From Escherichia coli (lineage in GTDB: Bacteria; Pseudomonadota; Gammaproteobacteria; Enterobacterales; Enterobacteriaceae), in the NCBI RefSeq assembly GCF_003018255.1, contig NZ_CP027440.1: 64,000 bases of DNA; one strand, written 5' to 3'. Below the pieces are notes generated by a model, which made no database searches, was not told the DNA's origin, and was given only the letters and a program-made list of their open reading frames with translations. This document shows, piece by piece, positions 2,076 through 26,232 of this stretch; the stretch's first letter is position 1; the number at the start of each line of letters is the position of its first letter. Made by a program: the position numbers and the translations under genes.

Positions 2076-3125
2076 TTATTTCCTGATAGGCAGGTAAACC
2101 GAGAACTCGGTATGACCTGGCCAACTGGTAAATTCAATTTTGCCTGAATGCTGATCAATCAAATTACGGGCGATGGATAAGCCAAGCCCGGTGCCACCTT
2201 CGCGGCCGCTGACCATCGGGTAAAACAGCGTATCCTGCAAATGAGGCGGAATACCTGGCCCGTTATCTTCCACATCAATTCGCGCCGCCAGCCGATAGCG
2301 CTCGCCGTGTAAGGTCAGTTGAAACGCTGTGCGGGTACGCAGAATGATTTCACCACCCTCCGGCCCCAGCGCCTGTAGCGCATTGCGCACAATATTCAGC
2401 AAGACCTGTTCAATTTGATCCGGGTCGTGCGCCAGTTCCGGCAGGCTGGGGTCGTAATCCCGAATCAACCGCACGTTGTCCGGCAGTTCCATCGACACCA
2501 GCGTCACCACGCGTTCAGCTACTTTATGAATACTTTCGGTAACGCGCGTACCGGGCAGTTGCGGTCCCAACAGACGGTCGACCAGATTTCGCAGCCGGTC
2601 CGCCTGTTCGATAATCACTTTGGTATATTCGAGTAGTGACGGGTCAGGTAATGCTTTGCTGAGCAGCTGCGCCGCGCCACGTAAACCGCCAAGCGGATTT
2701 TTAATCTCATGTGCCAGGCCGCGCACTAAATCACGGGCAGCAACCTGCTGGGCGTGCTGTAGCTGTTCCTGACTTAAGCGGCGCTGGTTATCCATCGGTG
2801 CCATCTCCAGCAGGATCATGCCGTCCGGCATACGCTGGGCCGTCACAGAAAGGATATGCGAGCGCCCGTCGATGACCAGCGTCACTTCGTTATCAGTAAA
2901 ACCTTGCCCCGCCTCCAGACTTTCTTGCATCAGCTCGATATTTAATGAGAAGTAGCTCAACAGTTCCGGTAACGGTGTACCAAACAATTTGCGGGAGCTT
3001 TGGGCGAGCAGTTGTTGCGCGGCGGGGTTGGCGTAATGGATCGCCAGGTTGTCATCGATTAACAAAATACTGTTAATCAGCGAGTTGAGGATCTGCCCAG
3101 CATCGGGCTGCGTGCCTGTTGCCAT
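2076..3125 (-). CDS. glnL: Nitrogen regulation sensor histidine kinase NtrB (NRII), 349 aa
   Basis: ORF-track peptide [25 protein letters not shown]... with H-box HEIKNPLGG; 11-nt gap to glnG. Confidence 0.93.
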
Positions 3126-19544: not shown

Positions 19545-20410
19545 AAACCATTCAGGACAAAGCCAGGCATCGTACCCGTCCACTATGGGCCTGGCTAAAA
19601 CTACTCTGGCAACGCATTGATGAGGACAACATGACAACCCTGGCAGGTAACCTTGCCTATGTGTCGTTGCTCTCATTAGTGCCGCTGGTTGCCGTTGTTT
19701 TTGCGCTTTTCGCCGCTTTTCCCATGTTTTCCGACGTCAGCATTCAGTTGCGTCACTTTATTTTTGCCAACTTTCTGCCTGCTACTGGCGATGTTATTCA
19801 GCGGTATATCGAACAATTTGTTGCCAATTCCAACAAGATGACCGCCGTTGGGGCGTGTGGGCTGATCGTCACAGCATTATTGCTGATGTACTCCATCGAT
19901 AGCGCGTTGAATACCATCTGGCGCAGCAAACGAGCGCGACCAAAAATTTACTCGTTTGCCGTGTACTGGATGATTTTAACGCTGGGGCCGCTGCTGGCAG
20001 GGGCCAGTCTGGCGATCAGTTCCTATCTGCTCTCCCTGCGCTGGGCGAGCGATCTCAATACTGTCATCGACAACGTGCTGCGTATTTTTCCGCTGCTGTT
20101 GTCGTGGATCTCCTTCTGGTTGCTGTACAGCATTGTTCCTACCATCCGCGTACCTAACCGCGACGCGATTGTCGGCGCGTTTGTCGCCGCACTCCTGTTC
20201 GAAGCAGGAAAGAAAGGTTTCGCGCTTTATATCACCATGTTCCCGTCATATCAGCTCATTTACGGCGTGCTGGCGGTGATCCCCATTCTCTTTGTCTGGG
20301 TCTACTGGACATGGTGTATCGTCTTGCTTGGCGCGGAAATTACTGTCACTCTCGGGGAATACCGCAAATTAAAACAAGCTGCTGAACAAGAAGAAGACGA
20401 CGAACCATGA
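19538..20410 (+). CDS. yihY: Inner-membrane protein YihY (formerly called RNase BN, rbn), 290 aa
   Basis: ORF-track peptide [21 protein letters not shown]...; overlaps yihX by 7 nt. Confidence 0.9.
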
Positions 20411-20844
20411 TTGCATTAATTCAACGCGTAACCCGTGCCAGCGTCACCGTGGAGGGAGAAGTGACGGGCGAAATTGGCGCGGGACTTTTGGTGTTATTGG
20501 GTGTCGAAAAGGATGACGACGAACAGAAAGCAAACCGTCTGTGCGAGCGTGTGCTCGGCTACCGCATCTTTAGCGATGCCGAAGGCAAGATGAATCTCAA
20601 CGTGCAACAGGCGGGCGGCAGTGTACTGGTGGTTTCCCAGTTTACCCTTGCCGCAGATACCGAACGGGGGATGCGTCCAAGTTTCTCCAAAGGTGCATCA
20701 CCGGATCGCGCAGAGGCGTTATATGACTATTTCGTCGAACGCTGCCGTCAGCAAGAGATGAACACGCAAACAGGACGCTTCGCTGCGGATATGCAGGTAT
20801 CGCTGGTCAATGATGGCCCCGTGACATTCTGGTTGCAGGTATGA
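20407..20844 (+). CDS. dtd: D-aminoacyl-tRNA deacylase, 145 aa
   Basis: ORF-track peptide [19 protein letters not shown]...; 4-nt overlap with yihY. Confidence 0.93.
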
Positions 20845-21830
20845 GCCAGCTTCCAGGGTTGTCACGGGAAACAAGAGAGAGTATCGCTATGTATCACCTT
20901 CGGGTTCCACAAACAGAAGAAGAATTAGAGCGTTACTATCAGTTTCGCTGGGAAATGTTGCGTAAGCCCCTGCATCAACCGAAAGGTTCGGAACGCGACG
21001 CGTGGGATGCGATGGCGCATCACCAGATGGTCGTCGACGAGCAGGGTAATCTGGTGGCGGTAGGCCGACTGTATATTAATGCCGACAATGAAGCGTCCAT
21101 TCGCTTTATGGCCGTTCATCCCGACGTGCAGGACAAAGGGTTAGGAACGCTGATGGCGATGACCCTCGAATCTGTGGCGCGTCAGGAAGGTGTTAAGCGC
21201 GTGACCTGTAGCGCCCGCGAAGACGCGGTGGAGTTTTTCGCCAAGCTGGGGTTTGTTAATCAGGGAGAAATCACCACGCCAACCACCACGCCGATTCGCC
21301 ATTTTTTGATGATTAAACCCGTTGCCACTCTGGATGATATTTTGCATCGCGGCGACTGGTGCGCGCAGCTGCAACAGGCGTGGTATGAACACATCCCGCT
21401 GAGTGAAAAAATGGGCGTGCGCATTCAGCAATATACCGGGCAAAAATTTATCACCACCATGCCGGAAACAGGCAATCAGAATCCGCATCACACGCTGTTT
21501 GCCGGGAGTTTATTCTCGCTGGCAACGCTCACCGGTTGGGGGCTTATCTGGCTGATGCTGCGCGAACGCCACCTCGGCGGAACGATTATTCTGGCGGATG
21601 CGCATATCCGCTACAGCAAGCCGATTAGCGGCAAACCTCATGCGGTAGCCGACCTTGGTGCCTTAAGCGGCGATCTCGACCGTCTGGCGCGCGGACGAAA
21701 AGCACGGGTGCAGATGCAAGTAGAAATCTTTGGCGACGAGACGCCGGGTGCAGTGTTTGAAGGCACGTATATCGTTCTGCCCGCGAAGCCATTTGGCCCG
21801 TATGAAGAGGGCGGGAACGAAGAAGAGTAG
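20841..21830 (+). CDS. yiiD: GNAT acetyltransferase / thioesterase-domain protein YiiD (FabY), 329 aa
   Basis: ORF-track peptide; 4-nt overlap with dtd. Confidence 0.88.
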
Positions 21831-21847
21831 GGGCGTTTTACTTGACT

Positions 21848-21876
21848 GAAAAGGTTTTCAATCTGAAAACCTTTTC
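21848..21876. terminator. Bidirectional hairpin terminator between yiiD and the esterase gene (gaaaaggttttcaatctgaaaaccttttc)
   Basis: Inverted repeat read directly between the two convergent stops. Confidence 0.6.
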
Positions 21877-21893
21877 TGGGCCCTGGTCCGGAG

Positions 21894-22877
21894 TTACCTT
21901 CCCGCTCTCCAGGCAACATCCCGTAGCGCCGATCGCGCAGCCTCGCTGATACCACCTAACTGAAAAAATCCGTGGATAACGCCAAGGTAGCGTTGGCAGG
22001 TGCATTGCACTCCTTGCCCTGTCATGCGGTGATACAACGCTTCACCTTCATCGCAAAGTGGGTCGTATTCAGCGGTAATGATATGTACAGGTGGCAAGCC
22101 ATTGAAATCATCGCGCCAAAGAGGGCTGGCTTCAGGATGCCTGCGTTCAATGCCTGGCAGGTACATCTCAAAGCCGCTCAGTAAAGTGTCGCGTGTGATG
22201 ATGTAATCGTGACCATTGCGTATGTAGCTTTCGAAATGCGCAGTCGCATCAAGCATGGGATAAATTAAGATGAGTTGTGCTGGTTGCCACTCGCCAGCAC
22301 GCTTCAATCGCAAAGCAGTTACCAGCGCCAGATGCCCTCCCGCACTGTCACCGGCAAGAGTTATTCGTTGTTTATCAACGCCGAGTCGTTCGGCGTGTTG
22401 CCGGACTAATTCTGCACCTCGTTGTGCATCATCATGGGCGGCGGGGAAAGTATGTTCCGGTGCCAGCCGATACTGGACGGCAATAATCCGACATTGCCCG
22501 TAATAGGCTAACTGGCGCAGCTGGTTGTCGTGAGTTGCGAACCCGCCGCTAACAAAACAGCCACCGTAGTAATAAATTATCGTCGGGAGTAATGTCGGGG
22601 CATTCAGCGGTGACACTATTCGTAAGGTCATCCCTTCAAGTTCGATAGTCTGAATATCTACCCGCGTTTCTGTCTCACCCGCAAGGACAGCGCTGGCGAT
22701 ATAGCCCTCTCTGCGCTGCGTAATACTTTGTTGGCGCGATGAGGGGCGACCCGCAGCGATAAACTCTTCGACTAACTCTGCAATTCCTTTTTCCAGTGCC
22801 ATAGTAGAACTCATTTTGCTGTATGAATGTACAGTTTTATACACCCGTTTTTGCTGGATGGATACAGGGAAATTCAC
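21894..22877 (-). CDS. Alpha/beta-hydrolase, hormone-sensitive-lipase (Aes-like) family carboxylesterase, up to 327 aa
   Basis: GDSAGG nucleophile-elbow motif; ORF starts at a GTG (22877), first in-frame ATG at about 22814. Confidence 0.75.
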   Translation of the reverse strand: MNFPVSIQQKRVYKTVHSYSKMSSTMALEKGIAELVEEFIAAGRPSSRQQSITQRREGYIASAVLAGETETRVDIQTIELEGMTLRIVSPLNAPTLLPTIIYYYGGCFVSGGFATHDNQLRQLAYYGQCRIIAVQYRLAPEHTFPAAHDDAQRGAELVRQHAERLGVDKQRITLAGDSAGGHLALVTALRLKRAGEWQPAQLILIYPMLDATAHFESYIRNGHDYIITRDTLLSGFEMYLPGIERRHPEASPLWRDDFNGLPPVHIITAEYDPLCDEGEALYHRMTGQGVQCTCQRYLGVIHGFFQLGGISEAARSALRDVAWRAGR

Positions 22878-22976
22878 GGGCGTGAAAAATCTGGAAAGCG
22901 CCTCGCAAATGTAAAGACAAACCCGGCAGAGACGTGGTTTTGCTGGAGCACTATCAGTAAGCTAGTGGTTTCAAGG

Positions 22977-22993
22977 GTACGTCAATGACGTAC
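22977..22993. promoter_or_regulatory. Perfect 17-bp palindrome (gtacgtcaatgacgtac) upstream of the toxin-antitoxin pair; candidate operator
   Basis: Read directly; lies between the divergent esterase gene and the toxin gene, upstream of a TATAAT at 23024-23029. Confidence 0.4.
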
Positions 22994-23030
22994 AAAAAGG
23001 ATTGTTACTCTAAGCCAATGGCGTATAATT

Positions 23031-23342
23031 ATGCTCTTCATCGAAACGGAAATTTTTACTGAAGATGTTCAAAAACTGCTGACCGACGATGAATTCAGTC
23101 GTTTTCAGTTTTTCCTGGCCTTGAATCCTGACTATGGTGAGGTAATACCTGAAACTGGTGGGTTAAGAAAGGTTCGATGGGTGTCAGGAGGAAAGGGGAA
23201 ACGTGCTGGTGTCAGGGTTATTTACTTTCATCAGGTTAAACATTATGAGATCAGATTACTGCTTATTTATCGTAAGGGTATTAAAGATGATCTGTCTCCC
23301 CAGGAAAAAGCAATGCTCCGGTTGTTAAATACGAGGTGGTAA
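23031..23342 (+). CDS. RelE/ParE-superfamily (HigB-like) type II toxin, 103 aa
   Basis: Small basic protein (MLFIETEIFTEDVQKLL...) immediately followed, with no gap, by an XRE-family HTH gene. Confidence 0.6.
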   Translation: MLFIETEIFTEDVQKLLTDDEFSRFQFFLALNPDYGEVIPETGGLRKVRWVSGGKGKRAGVRVIYFHQVKHYEIRLLLIYRKGIKDDLSPQEKAMLRLLNTRW

Positions 23343-23633
23343 ATGGATAAGGCACTTTTTGAGCGGTTGACTCACAGCATGGCCCAGATGAATGAAATTA
23401 TTGAAGGAACGCGACAGCCTTCGCGGACTTTTGAAGTTGATGCTATGAAAATCAAAGAAATACGCCGCGCTTCAGGGTTGTCACAATCTAAATTTGCCGA
23501 TCTTATTTCTGTAAGCGTAGACACGTTGCGTAACTGGGAGCAGGGGCGACGTTCACCGACCGGGCCTGCAAAGGCTTTGCTGCGAGCGATTGCCAATGAT
23601 CCGCAACATGTGCTGCAAGCACTTAACCGTTAG
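23343..23633 (+). CDS. XRE-family HTH antitoxin (HigA-like), 96 aa
   Basis: HTH (IRRASGLSQSKFADLISVSVDTLRNWEQG); start codon abuts the toxin stop (tggTAAATGg). Confidence 0.6.
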   Translation: MDKALFERLTHSMAQMNEIIEGTRQPSRTFEVDAMKIKEIRRASGLSQSKFADLISVSVDTLRNWEQGRRSPTGPAKALLRAIANDPQHVLQALNR

Positions 23634-24237
23634 AGGCATGGTTATGCCATACAGAAAGCACCAGCATTCAGAACTCCTGTGAAAGCGGCGTAGTGCCACC
23701 TGCTCAGGAGTTTTGCTATGACCCGTAATCGTGCTGACCGTTGCCACCCTATGATGCGATTAAAAAAACTCATCGTCGCGCCGATGATTGACGTCAATGC
23801 TATCGGATGATACCGGGGGTGTTCCGGAAGGAATTCCTTGTTTCCCGAACTGTTACCAACAAAATTATAACGATAAGCAAGTAAAGACCGGTTGGTGGCA
23901 GTACTGACCGGTCTGTGATGGATGATTAATTTCACCTTAAATCCTGGTGCTGTTAGGATGCTGACATTTTTCGGCTACACCATTCAGATTATGCAAATAA
24001 AGATCCAATCAAAAGATAAATATCCCTGAATATAATATATTTATAGCACCCATATCTCATCCTGGGCGATAACCCAACCATTTTTGATTAACAAATGAAA
24101 CAACTGCAACGTTCTTATTATTTCTGGAAAACGTCTCGCAAAAACAAAACAGCATGCAAAAATCCGCTTTTTTTAAATGATTTTTCGGCGTAATTTTCGC
24201 ACATACATTAATGAGTAATATATGTAAGGTATTGGTA

Positions 24238-24456
24238 ATGGCGATGAATACGGTTTTTCTTCATTTATCAGAAGAGGCAATTAAACGGCTGAACAAGCTT
24301 AGGGGCTGGCGTAAGGTTTCACGATCTGCAATTTTACGCGAAGCGGTTGAGCAATATCTGGAGCGGCAGCAATTTCCGGTGCGTAAAGCAAAGGGTGGCA
24401 GGCAAAGGGGGGAGACAGTAGTTGTTGATGATCAGTGTAAGGAGCATAAGGAATGA
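24238..24456 (+). CDS. yiiE: Ribbon-helix-helix (CopG-like) small regulator, 72 aa
   Basis: ORF 24211..24456 with start at internal Met (MAMNTVFLHLSEEAIKRLNKLRGW...); name from recollection of K-12. Confidence 0.55.
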   Translation: MAMNTVFLHLSEEAIKRLNKLRGWRKVSRSAILREAVEQYLERQQFPVRKAKGGRQRGETVVVDDQCKEHKE

Positions 24457-24670
24457 CAAAAAATTTATTATTCTTGAATATAAAAACCAGATGCCCTTAT
24501 TCTGGTATTAATACAAAGCTGTTTTACTTGAACTTATAATAACTGCAACTGTTACATCATATCTGGAAAACGCCTCGCGAAATACGAGAGATTTTGCGGG
24601 AATAGCAGGTGTCGTCATACCCTATGAACTGTAATCCGGGCGACCAGCGCCACCCGGAAAACGTCAGAGA

Positions 24671-25600
24671 TTACTCCCCTTCACCCGGAAACAGGAACGG
24701 GTTGATGGAACTACGGGCATAGCCTTCTTGCTCCATTCGCGCGTCCAGTACCAGAGAGGCGAGGTCATCTGCCACGGCTTCAACTTTCGGTTCTTTTTCC
24801 TGATAAAGAATCTTCAGGTAAGTGCCGCAGTCATCGCAGCTTTCGGCTTTAATCGCGGCCTGTTCGTCATCCAGCGACCAGTAATGCAGTTTGCCGCTTT
24901 GTTCACAGTTGCTGCATTTTACGCGTACTACGTGCCATTCAGTTTCACACAGGTTGCAGTGCAGGTAACGCAGCCCCTGAGTGGTGCCAATTTGCACCAT
25001 GCTGGACACCGGCATAGAACCACAAACCGGGCAATATTGACGTTGTTCGCCATATTCCGCACGCGCTTTGCCGGGGATCAGATTGGCCATCTGCGCCCAG
25101 TAGAGCGACAGTGCAGCCCAGATAAACGGCGCTTTATCGCTGCTGACGGACGAGAAATCAGAGGCAAACAGTGCGCTGGCCATATCTTCCAGCTCCTGAG
25201 TCGATGCCTTCTCCAGATTCTCAATCACTGCCAGCGCCGGGCCGCTCATTTCAGGTTTCAGCTCAGCAATCAGCGCCATCAGCAGCTTTTGCCAGTGCTT
25301 ATCACGCGGCAGAACGTGAATATCCAGCGGGGGCTTGCCCTGTGCGCTGGCTTCTTTAATGCGCGCGGTCAGATCCATCTCCAGCGGATGGTCGTACAGC
25401 ACCACTTCCTGGGCGTGGGCGATAAGCGCAGCAAAGCGCAGGTAATCACCCAGCGGATTATTTTCTGCCAGCTCGCGCAGACGCTCGGCGCGGCGGTTGT
25501 ATAAATTCTTGAGCCGAGGGAACAATAACGGCGGAATCATATCCGCCGTACGTTTCTCGCTCGAACCCAGCTCATCTTGCGGGATTATGCGAATACTCAT
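24671..25600 (-). CDS. fdhE: Formate dehydrogenase accessory protein FdhE, 309 aa
   Basis: CxxC cysteine clusters ([31 protein letters not shown]). Confidence 0.93.
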
Positions 25601-26232
25601 TCAGCTTTCTTTTCCGTTGTCTTGCGGACCTCACGGTACCAGCGCGGGTGATGTTTCTTCGCCCAGGCGCTGGTCACCCATCCTTCCACCATGGCGGTAA
25701 TCGTGCCTTTCACCCAAAGGGCGGCGTAGATATGCACCATGATAACCACAATTAACGCCACTGCGGCAAATGAATGCAGCATTAACGCGAATCGGATCAC
25801 CGGGATTGAGAAAGCAGGCGCAAAATAAGGACGCCAGATAATCACGCCGCTCACCAGCAACAGGACCAGGAAAATAATCGCCGCCCAGAAAACGCATTTC
25901 TGACCGAAGTTATAACGCCCGGTGTCACCTACTTCCTCGTTGACGACGATCTTACGAATATTCTTCGCCCAAAAGATATCATCCCGATTGATTAGGTTGT
26001 GATGCCAGTAACGGAAAAACATGATGATGAACGAGGCAAACATAACCACGCCGACAAACGGGTGCAGAATTCGCGCCAGCTGCGGTGTGCCCATGATTTG
26101 CATCAACCAGTTGAAGGACGGGAACAAAAAGCCCAGCCCGCTCACCGCCGCCAGGATGAAGCAGAAGGCGGTGATCCAGTGGTTGATACGTTCCGGCGCG
26201 GTGTAGCGCACGATGGTGTCACGTCGTTTCAT
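25597..26232 (-). CDS. fdoI: Formate dehydrogenase-O cytochrome b556 subunit, 211 aa
   Basis: Polytopic membrane protein; 4-nt overlaps with fdoH and fdhE. Confidence 0.93.

Follow-up and report, generated by a model that had tools for sequence, protein, structure and literature searches.

A conserved fabY-fdhE interval of Escherichia coli carrying a predicted LexA-controlled esterase gene and a HigB2/HigA2-type toxin-antitoxin pair

The higBA2 toxin-antitoxin (TA) pair of Vibrio cholerae is a superintegron cassette. It belongs to a structurally characterised family (PDB 5JA8, 5JA9, 5JAA, 8A0X, 9TV9), in which the active site of the toxin VcHigB2 was defined by mutagenesis as Arg51, Arg64, Tyr82 and Lys84 (PMC5416850) and the operator of the antitoxin VcHigA2 was footprinted as TGTACGC-N5-GCGTACA (PMC11006873). 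Here we analysed a related pair and the esterase gene beside it in the interval between fabY (yiiD) and fdhE of Escherichia coli, within a 64-kb stretch of contig NZ_CP027440.1 (64,000 nucleotides, hereafter the window). A pair at this locus has been catalogued before: relE-1/yiaG-1 (TA27) of the adherent-invasive E. coli (AIEC) strain NRG857c consists of genes of 312 bp and 291 bp between yiiD and fdhE, and was reported to be absent from K-12 and HS along with its bordering genes (PMC7232551, Front Microbiol 2020). It is evidently the same pair as that of the window. In that paper the pair was labelled pathogen-associated and islet-like, without a HigBA2 assignment, ancestral synteny, operators or a LexA box.

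The esterase belongs to family IV, also called the hormone-sensitive-lipase (HSL) type. Like other members of this family (Est8, 4YPV; EST2, 1EVQ; E. coli Aes, 4KRX), it has the Abhydrolase_3 fold, a GDSAG nucleophile elbow and catalytic Asp and His residues in DPLxDEG and HGF motifs. Unlike them, it stays under the NCBIfam equivalog cut-offs, carries YGG instead of HGG in E. coli and has a LexA-box promoter. The canonical E. coli SOS consensus, with which this box is compared below, is TACTG(TA)5CAGTA (quoted in PMC8265657).

Our reading of the locus, to which we give a probability of about 0.78, is that the fabY-fdhE interval is old and vertically kept, with the order fabY, esterase, small cassette and fdhE, that it is near-intact in the window, and that it was lost in strains of the K-12 and O157 types. 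It would comprise three independent parts: a LexA-controlled esterase gene, a HigBA2 operon and ~600 bp of non-coding DNA. The listing of open reading frames (ORFs) and direct reading gave the order dtd, fabY, esterase, toxin ORF, antitoxin ORF, ~600-bp gap, yiiE and fdhE (Table 1), with a divergent intergenic region of 228 bp between the esterase and toxin genes. A preliminary description made from the sequence had placed the esterase, the toxin-first pair and ~600 bp without an intact gene at these coordinates, which the ORF listing and direct reading confirmed. Its gene identities, an HSL-family esterase with GDSAGG, a RelE/HigB-like toxin and an XRE antitoxin, agreed with the Pfam and PDB comparisons reported below.

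Table 1. Features of the fabY-fdhE interval and its flanks, with positions in the window (PGAP, NCBI Prokaryotic Genome Annotation Pipeline)
Feature	Position	Strand	Remarks
dtd	20407-20844		From the ORF listing
fabY (yiiD), left conserved anchor	20841-21830	+	Homology with K-12 and O157 stops exactly at the fabY stop codon
Perfect 13-bp inverted repeat, 3-nt loop	21848-21876		Lies in the 63 bp separating fabY from the convergent esterase gene
Family IV/HSL-type esterase, 302 aa	21894-22802 (PGAP start; ORF runs to 22877)	-	
LexA (SOS) box TGCTGTATGAATGTACAGTT	22817-22836		Predicted; core CTGT-N8-ACAG CTGTATGAATGTACAG occupies 22819-22834, at 17-32 nt before the esterase ATG
-10-like TATAAA, predicted esterase promoter	22836-22841	-	Abuts the LexA box; position predicted
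19-nt element, copy 1, CTGGAAAGCGCCTCGCAAA	22891-22909	+	Heads the toxin-antitoxin cassette
Operator O1, GTACGTCA-A-TGACGTAC (= GTACGTCAATGACGTAC)	22977-22993		GTACG-N7-CGTAC half-sites as in the V. cholerae HigA2 operator
Operator O2, TAAGC-CAATG-GCGTA (TAAGCCAATGGCGTA)	23011-23025		Departs from the O1/V. cholerae pattern at one position
higB2-like toxin gene, 103 aa, RelE superfamily	23031-23342	+	
higA2-like antitoxin gene, 96 aa	23343-23633	+	C-terminal XRE helix-turn-helix (PGAP NadS family; CDD YiaG)
105-nt repeat	23608-23712	+	Last 26 nt of the antitoxin gene and 79 nt downstream
Junction of ~396-bp deletion	23768-23774		Relative to the fuller haplotypes L004, L006 and L008
3' remnant of 92-aa hypothetical ORF	23774-23880	+	Shares ~80% identity with the L008 allele; homology to K-12 restarts at 23841
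84-nt repeat upstream of yiiE	24099-24182	+	Contains copy 2 of the 19-nt element, 24124-24142
yiiE, 72-aa ribbon-helix-helix (CopG-type) protein	24238-24456 (PGAP start; ORF opens at 24211)	+	
Orphan upstream repeat of missing yiiF	24537-24607	+	Includes the third 19-nt element and the yiiF-deletion junction 24583-24607
19-nt element, copy 3	24563-24581	+	Inside the orphan yiiF upstream repeat
fdhE, right conserved anchor	24671-25600	-	

Among 5426 complete E. coli genomes, the esterase was found in 2639 and the pair in 2636 (~49%), almost always as a single copy. Nucleotide identity of the esterase gene within E. coli ranged from 95 to 100%, as expected of a gene long resident there, and its ORF was intact in ~2636 genomes (at least 80% query coverage, 95-100% nucleotide identity). 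To other species we applied tblastn with the window proteins, scanning one genome per species, which gave 61 loci from species other than E. coli (L009-L069). Esterase orthologues with 69-83% amino acid identity were present in ~60 other Enterobacteriaceae species at the same place and in the same orientation; the genera include Citrobacter, Klebsiella, Enterobacter, Kluyvera, Kosakonia, Raoultella, Lelliottia and Pseudocitrobacter, and Salmonella arizonae and diarizonae also have an orthologue. The gene was located between fabY and fdhE and convergent with fabY in 55 of the 61 loci, the rest running off contig ends. The segment had initially been described as an accessory insertion, a small strain-specific islet. 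This view is not tenable for a block that occurs in about half of the complete E. coli genomes and whose esterase is syntenic across so many species; moreover, no mobility gene (integrase), tRNA or target duplication flanks the block in the window.

The same 61 loci showed what accompanies the esterase elsewhere. The pair was present in eight species and a remnant of the antitoxin gene in one, while 28 had only a ribbon-helix-helix (yiiE/yiiF-like) gene and 24 had neither. In the eight TA-bearing species, the antitoxins were 85-88% and the toxins 69-72% identical to the window proteins, and the esterase, FabY and FdhE had mean identities to the window proteins of 77%, 92% and 93%, respectively. 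A functional tie between the esterase and the addiction module, which the preliminary description had left open, is not indicated, since most species have the esterase but not the pair and the two have separate promoter signals. The esterase and the pair are neighbours and not a functional unit, and they should not be treated as one. Their near-perfect co-occurrence in E. coli is accounted for by single deletions that removed both.

The forms of the locus found in other E. coli strains bear on the direction of change. K-12 indeed lacks the esterase and the pair and has no gene between fabY and yiiE. However, yiiD does not directly adjoin yiiE there, contrary to the preliminary description; an 852-bp spacer separates them, of which ~474-480 bp are the start of a two-gene module and the rest is homologous to window positions 23841-24237. 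The whole of 21831-24237 had been taken as extra DNA relative to K-12, and this holds for 21831-23840 (2,010 bp) but not for the K-12-homologous remainder. The module remnant in K-12 (positions 2532-3006 of locus L002) is annotated as a truncated pseudogene and comprises the first 39 codons of the module. In its fullest E. coli form (L008), the interval reads fabY, two-gene module, 105-nt repeat, esterase, TA pair, 105-nt repeat, 73-aa and 92-aa ORFs, yiiE, yiiF and fdhE. The junction of module and esterase that marks this form occurs in 330 genomes; in these the second copy of the 105-nt repeat (~88-90% identical) adjoins the esterase stop codon, and the two copies (L008 4367-4471 and 6184-6286) are direct repeats bracketing the esterase and TA block. 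The O157 form equals the L008 form minus the DNA between the two repeats, with homology to the window resuming exactly at 23608 and 26 nt of the antitoxin gene kept. By these counts, the complete genomes divide into ~2300 of the window type, 330 with module, esterase and pair, ~730 of the O157 type and ~2050 K-12-like ones. The module remnant, together with the resumption of homology inside the 92-aa ORF, implies that K-12 descends from a form with these genes. The K-12 and O157 forms are thus deletion or replacement derivatives with remnants, which reverses the polarity implied by the word insertion: strains of both kinds would have lost the esterase and the pair by deletion or replacement, and presence or absence in K-12, a derived and deleted state, was a misleading guide. 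In O157-type strains the module lies between fabY and yiiE (L005 1742-3556, E. coli O157:H7) and encodes proteins of 297 aa and 304 aa, the second of which is sometimes annotated as a transposase; neither gave a significant match in Pfam, NCBIfam or PADLOC.

An alignment of the intergenic region between the esterase and the pair across nine genera revealed three conserved blocks, namely the operators of the pair, a LexA box and a 19-nt element. The LexA box belongs to the esterase promoter. Like canonical SOS promoters, it has CTG-N10-CAG trimers with an AT-rich spacer and abuts a -10-like element, and it agrees with the consensus at 15 of 20 positions. The only other match to its core in the window has a GC-rich spacer. 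Across 65 esterase loci the core was CTGT-N8-ACAG in 53 and CTGG-N8-ACAG, with one mismatch, in 12, and one orthologue (L045) has a perfect 16-nt LexA core. In all 65 loci the box was located 15-21 nt before the esterase ATG, directly after a -10-like element of the TATAA type. That element was TATAA(A/C/G) in nearly all orthologous loci and ATATAA or CAAAAT in a few, and an AAGGA-type ribosome-binding site follows 3' of the box in most genera. Both the box and the -10 element were intact in the six E. coli loci examined.

On the strength of these sequence features, the esterase is most likely repressed by LexA and inducible by DNA damage; the -10-like TATAA would be followed by a box at which LexA represses, and DNA damage would induce the gene. 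Unlike canonical SOS genes, the gene predicted to be controlled is an esterase with no evident DNA-repair role. K-12 does not have the gene, which explains why the classical LexA regulon studies and lists do not include it. No report of a LexA-regulated esterase was found in the literature searched. The conserved LexA site on the esterase is thus apparently unreported, and would add a member to a known regulon.

Family membership of the esterase is clear from its match to Pfam Abhydrolase_3 (PF07859, E 1.4e-68) and to the solved family IV esterases Est8 (4YPV, E 4e-51) and E. coli Aes (4KRX, E 4e-29). It scored under every NCBIfam equivalog cut-off, the best model being LipP1 with 238 bits against the 350 needed. 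The protein has GDSAGG at residue 151, DPLCDEG at ~247 and IHGF at ~276, and among 64 esterase sequences GDSAGG was found in 63, DPLxDEG in 62 and xxHGF in 63. The oxyanion motif is YGGCF in the window and in all six of the six E. coli loci (L001, L003, L004, L006-L008), but HGGCF in 57 of the 58 orthologues outside E. coli (L009-L069) and HGGFF in the other. This E. coli-specific His-to-Tyr change affects esterase codon 79 (window 22566-22568). The YGG allele is atypical and may have impaired or altered activity, the protein still being of family IV by homology. Relaxed selection on the esterase in E. coli may also be considered, as it is allowed by Tyr79, a weaker ribosome-binding site and frequent gene loss.

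The second component of the interval is toxin-first, and the ATG of the antitoxin follows the toxin stop codon directly, with zero gap. In phmmer comparisons the toxin aligned gap-free over residues 2-99 with the PDB chains of V. cholerae HigB-2 (E 1.5e-19 to 1.5e-18). Its match to Pfam RelE (PF06296) was marginal (E 0.006) and no NCBIfam model matched, which is why RefSeq usually labels it hypothetical. With a two-residue offset in the gap-free alignment, the equivalents of the four VcHigB2 active-site residues are all present as R49, R62, Y80 and K82, and they were kept in six orthologues except for R49W in one metagenome-assembled genome. The antitoxin matched PDB HigA-2 chains over residues 31-89 (E 1.8e-8), HTH_3 (E 3e-9) and the NCBIfam NadS model (60.7 bits, cut-off 60). 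Its residues 1-30 lie outside the HigA2 alignment and are highly conserved among orthologues (MDKALFERL...).

Every sequence-level criterion tested places the pair in the HigB2/HigA2 family. It shares with the V. cholerae system the toxin-first order, a 98-residue gap-free toxin alignment, the four catalytic residues, a homologous C-terminal XRE helix-turn-helix in the antitoxin and GTACG-N7-CGTAC operator half-sites. In contrast to that system, the E. coli pair is chromosomal at a fixed syntenic site rather than an integron cassette, has two operators rather than one, and has an antitoxin whose N-terminal region does not align with HigA2 at the sequence level. As to an integron origin, no attC-like core sites were seen on inspection by eye, no dedicated tool having been run. 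HigBA2 of Acinetobacter baumannii pAB120 and related plasmid copies belong to the same toxin family; unlike the chromosomal, syntenic pair of the window, they are plasmid-borne, and they are less than 60% identical to the window toxin. Altogether 893 plasmid records had a family match, 307 of them from Acinetobacter, and Salmonella plasmid copies were ~71% identical. Searches of the literature with NadS and the protein accessions returned nothing relevant beyond PMC7232551. Already catalogued at this locus and belonging to a structurally characterised family, the pair adds little as a TA finding.

Operators O1 and O2 are conserved across the nine genera. O2 lies 33 bp from O1, centre to centre, just upstream of the toxin ATG. 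The likeness of half-sites and spacing to the VcHigA2 operator supports classical antitoxin autorepression, and the operators would overlap the promoter of the pair. By homology with V. cholerae, the toxin would act as a RelE-like ribosome-dependent mRNA endonuclease, the N-terminal segment of the antitoxin would neutralise it, and an antitoxin dimer would bind the two GTACG-N7-CGTAC-type operators over the promoter and repress the operon.

Downstream of the pair, the preliminary description had noted about 600 bp without convincing coding capacity, and this was borne out: the gap measures 577-604 bp and has no intact conserved gene before yiiE. Within it lie the 105-nt repeat, a deletion junction, what is left of the 92-aa ORF, and the region upstream of yiiE, the last being 93% identical to K-12. 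The ~396-bp deletion takes away most of the 73-aa ORF as well as the 5' portion of the 92-aa ORF. The gap therefore comprises the antitoxin gene's 3' flank with its repeat, a scar truncating small ORFs of other strains, and the yiiE upstream DNA. A minus-strand ORF of 97 aa (23642-23935), which runs across both the repeat and the deletion scar, is not annotated in other strains and was treated as spurious. No RNA family of Rfam was found in 21700-24800 at a permissive threshold. Some E. coli have, between two ribbon-helix-helix genes, a DUF6708 protein and a 246-aa hypothetical protein (L004 4571-6184); this pair and the 73-aa and 92-aa ORFs gave nothing significant in NCBIfam or PADLOC.

The 19-nt element has the pattern CTGGAAA(G/A)CGNCTCGC(A/G)AA. 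Its three copies in the window all lie at this locus, each ~95-120 nt upstream of a cassette start, namely those of higB2, yiiE and the deleted yiiF. In other genera it is the exact left edge of the exchangeable cassette; loci with a cassette gene behind the element keep it well, and most empty loci have a degenerate copy. A sigma-54 promoter (TGGCAC-N5-TTGC) was considered for this element and rejected: its GG-N10-GC spacing fits, but in its -24 region it has A where 42 of 42 intergenic sites from chromatin immunoprecipitation sequencing (ChIP-seq) have C or T. The K-12 ChIP-seq paper lists no sigma-54 site upstream of yiiE or yiiF, nor is one listed in the main text of the RpoN genomic SELEX (gSELEX) paper. 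Combining the element with the LexA box gives a wider proposal, for which we see even odds: that the esterase is a deeply conserved member of the SOS regulon missed through the K-12 deletion, and that the slot between esterase and fdhE swaps or stacks HigBA2 or ribbon-helix-helix cassettes, each headed by CTGGAAAGCGNCTCGCAAA, which might be a shared regulatory site or a recombination boundary.

Several observations weigh against an old, vertically kept interval with a working LexA-controlled esterase. LexA binding is here a prediction. The conserved His of the HGG motif is Tyr in 6/6 E. coli loci and in 0/58 others, and the Shine-Dalgarno sequence of the esterase is weaker in E. coli than in other genera, so that the E. 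coli enzyme may be impaired. The toxin gene has 41% GC against 51% for the window and the pair has a scattered distribution among species, so that horizontal acquisition of the pair by this slot is possible, the esterase being ancestral. No sister Escherichia species was among the matches of the scan, in which their presence is unconfirmed, and vertical continuity into E. coli is accordingly inferred and not traced. The literature searched held no report of expression, toxicity or enzyme activity for the locus. Finally, the best sigma-70 consensus match ahead of the toxin gene (TTGTTA-16-TATAAT, 23002-23029) was not adopted as its promoter; the start would fall inside the ORF, and the match is not conserved in other genera.

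One alternative is that only the esterase is ancestral, and that the HigBA2 pair is a separately mobile cassette, exchanged in the esterase-fdhE slot by flank recombination and alternating with cassettes of the yiiE/yiiF type. We regard it as a possible, though not the favoured, account. The presence of the pair in just 8 of 61 other species, the low GC of the segment and the many plasmid-borne relatives (893 records, with Salmonella copies ~71% identical) all suit it, as does the finding that two genomes of the Citrobacter amalonaticus group differ exactly from the 19-nt element to the fdhE stop codon, with the pair in one and a ribbon-helix-helix gene in the second. The pair also varies less within E. 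coli than the esterase does, 2448 genomes having it at 99% identity or more versus 1020 for the esterase. However, the nine genera all agree in position, spacing, operators and upstream element, and the identity of the toxin to that of E. coli is a uniform 69-72% in all eight species. The decaying antitoxin-gene remnant of one species (L035) and the 26 nt of the antitoxin gene kept in the O157 type fit long residence followed by loss. The pair is AT-rich and of a family common on plasmids, and either vertical inheritance with loss or exchange by flank recombination may apply to it. Decay of the locus in E. coli, in which the esterase would be a crippled relic and the pair would persist only through its own addiction property, appears unlikely to us. 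The E. coli-specific His-to-Tyr change in the HGG motif, the weakened ribosome-binding site and repeated independent deletions (those of the K-12 and O157 types, that behind the 396-bp scar and that of yiiF) speak for it, but the esterase ORF is intact in ~2636 genomes, all six E. coli loci examined retain an intact LexA box and -10 element, and the pair itself has been cleanly lost at least twice, which means that addiction does not prevent its loss.

Two further ideas find very little room. The islet of the preliminary description, inserted horizontally between yiiD and yiiE with an esterase and module that arrived together and possibly cooperate, could draw on the missing 2,010-bp segment in K-12, on the AT-rich TA part and on the near-perfect co-occurrence in E. 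coli (2639 versus 2636 genomes). We consider it very improbable, because the esterase with its conserved promoter is syntenic in ~60 species of many genera, the block is present in 49% of E. coli genomes, neither integrase nor tRNA nor target-site duplication is seen, and the K-12 and O157 remnants show loss; the co-occurrence itself is explained by single deletions, most species having the esterase without the pair. Equally improbable is an anti-phage abortive-infection system formed by the pair, with or without the esterase, in a defence hotspot. It is true that the interval has a highly mosaic make-up, several uncharacterised modules being found in other strains, and that homologues of both TA proteins occur in phages (PHROGs 5869 and 2104). 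Yet PADLOC found no family-level defence match with either esterase or toxin, the antitoxin gave nothing beyond generic helix-turn-helix matches, and yiiE and the neighbouring modules of other strains received no PADLOC defence assignment. The locus is moreover vertically conserved and not island-like, and we know of no report of HigBA2-type modules in phage defence.

Other features of the region are of local interest. The inverted repeat between fabY and the esterase is AT-rich, lacks a T-tract and is absent in the L008-type haplotype. The gene yiiF, which lies 3' of yiiE in K-12, is missing from the window; it was deleted in this strain with ~600 bp around it (K-12 locus L002 3728-4328), its upstream repeat being left as an orphan. 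YiiE (24238-24456) and YiiF (L002 3820-4062) show weak similarity (E ~0.003-0.005) to the NCBIfam YbfE model, which is annotated as a LexA-regulated protein. Positions 26064-26078, inside fdoI, match exactly IS47 (TGGCGCGAATTCTGC), an intragenic sigma-54 binding motif reported upstream of fdhE from ChIP-seq in K-12 (PMC4591121).

The locus is overall ordinary and largely explained, and its modest new content is the conserved SOS box and the 19-nt element that heads the cassettes. Since K-12 represents the deleted state, labelling the pair a pathogen-associated islet is unsafe. The LexA-box promoter, invariant on an esterase of a lipolytic family across the Enterobacteriaceae, is the one point that could open new work: if it is true, the SOS response would govern an ester-hydrolysing activity that is invisible to K-12-based studies.

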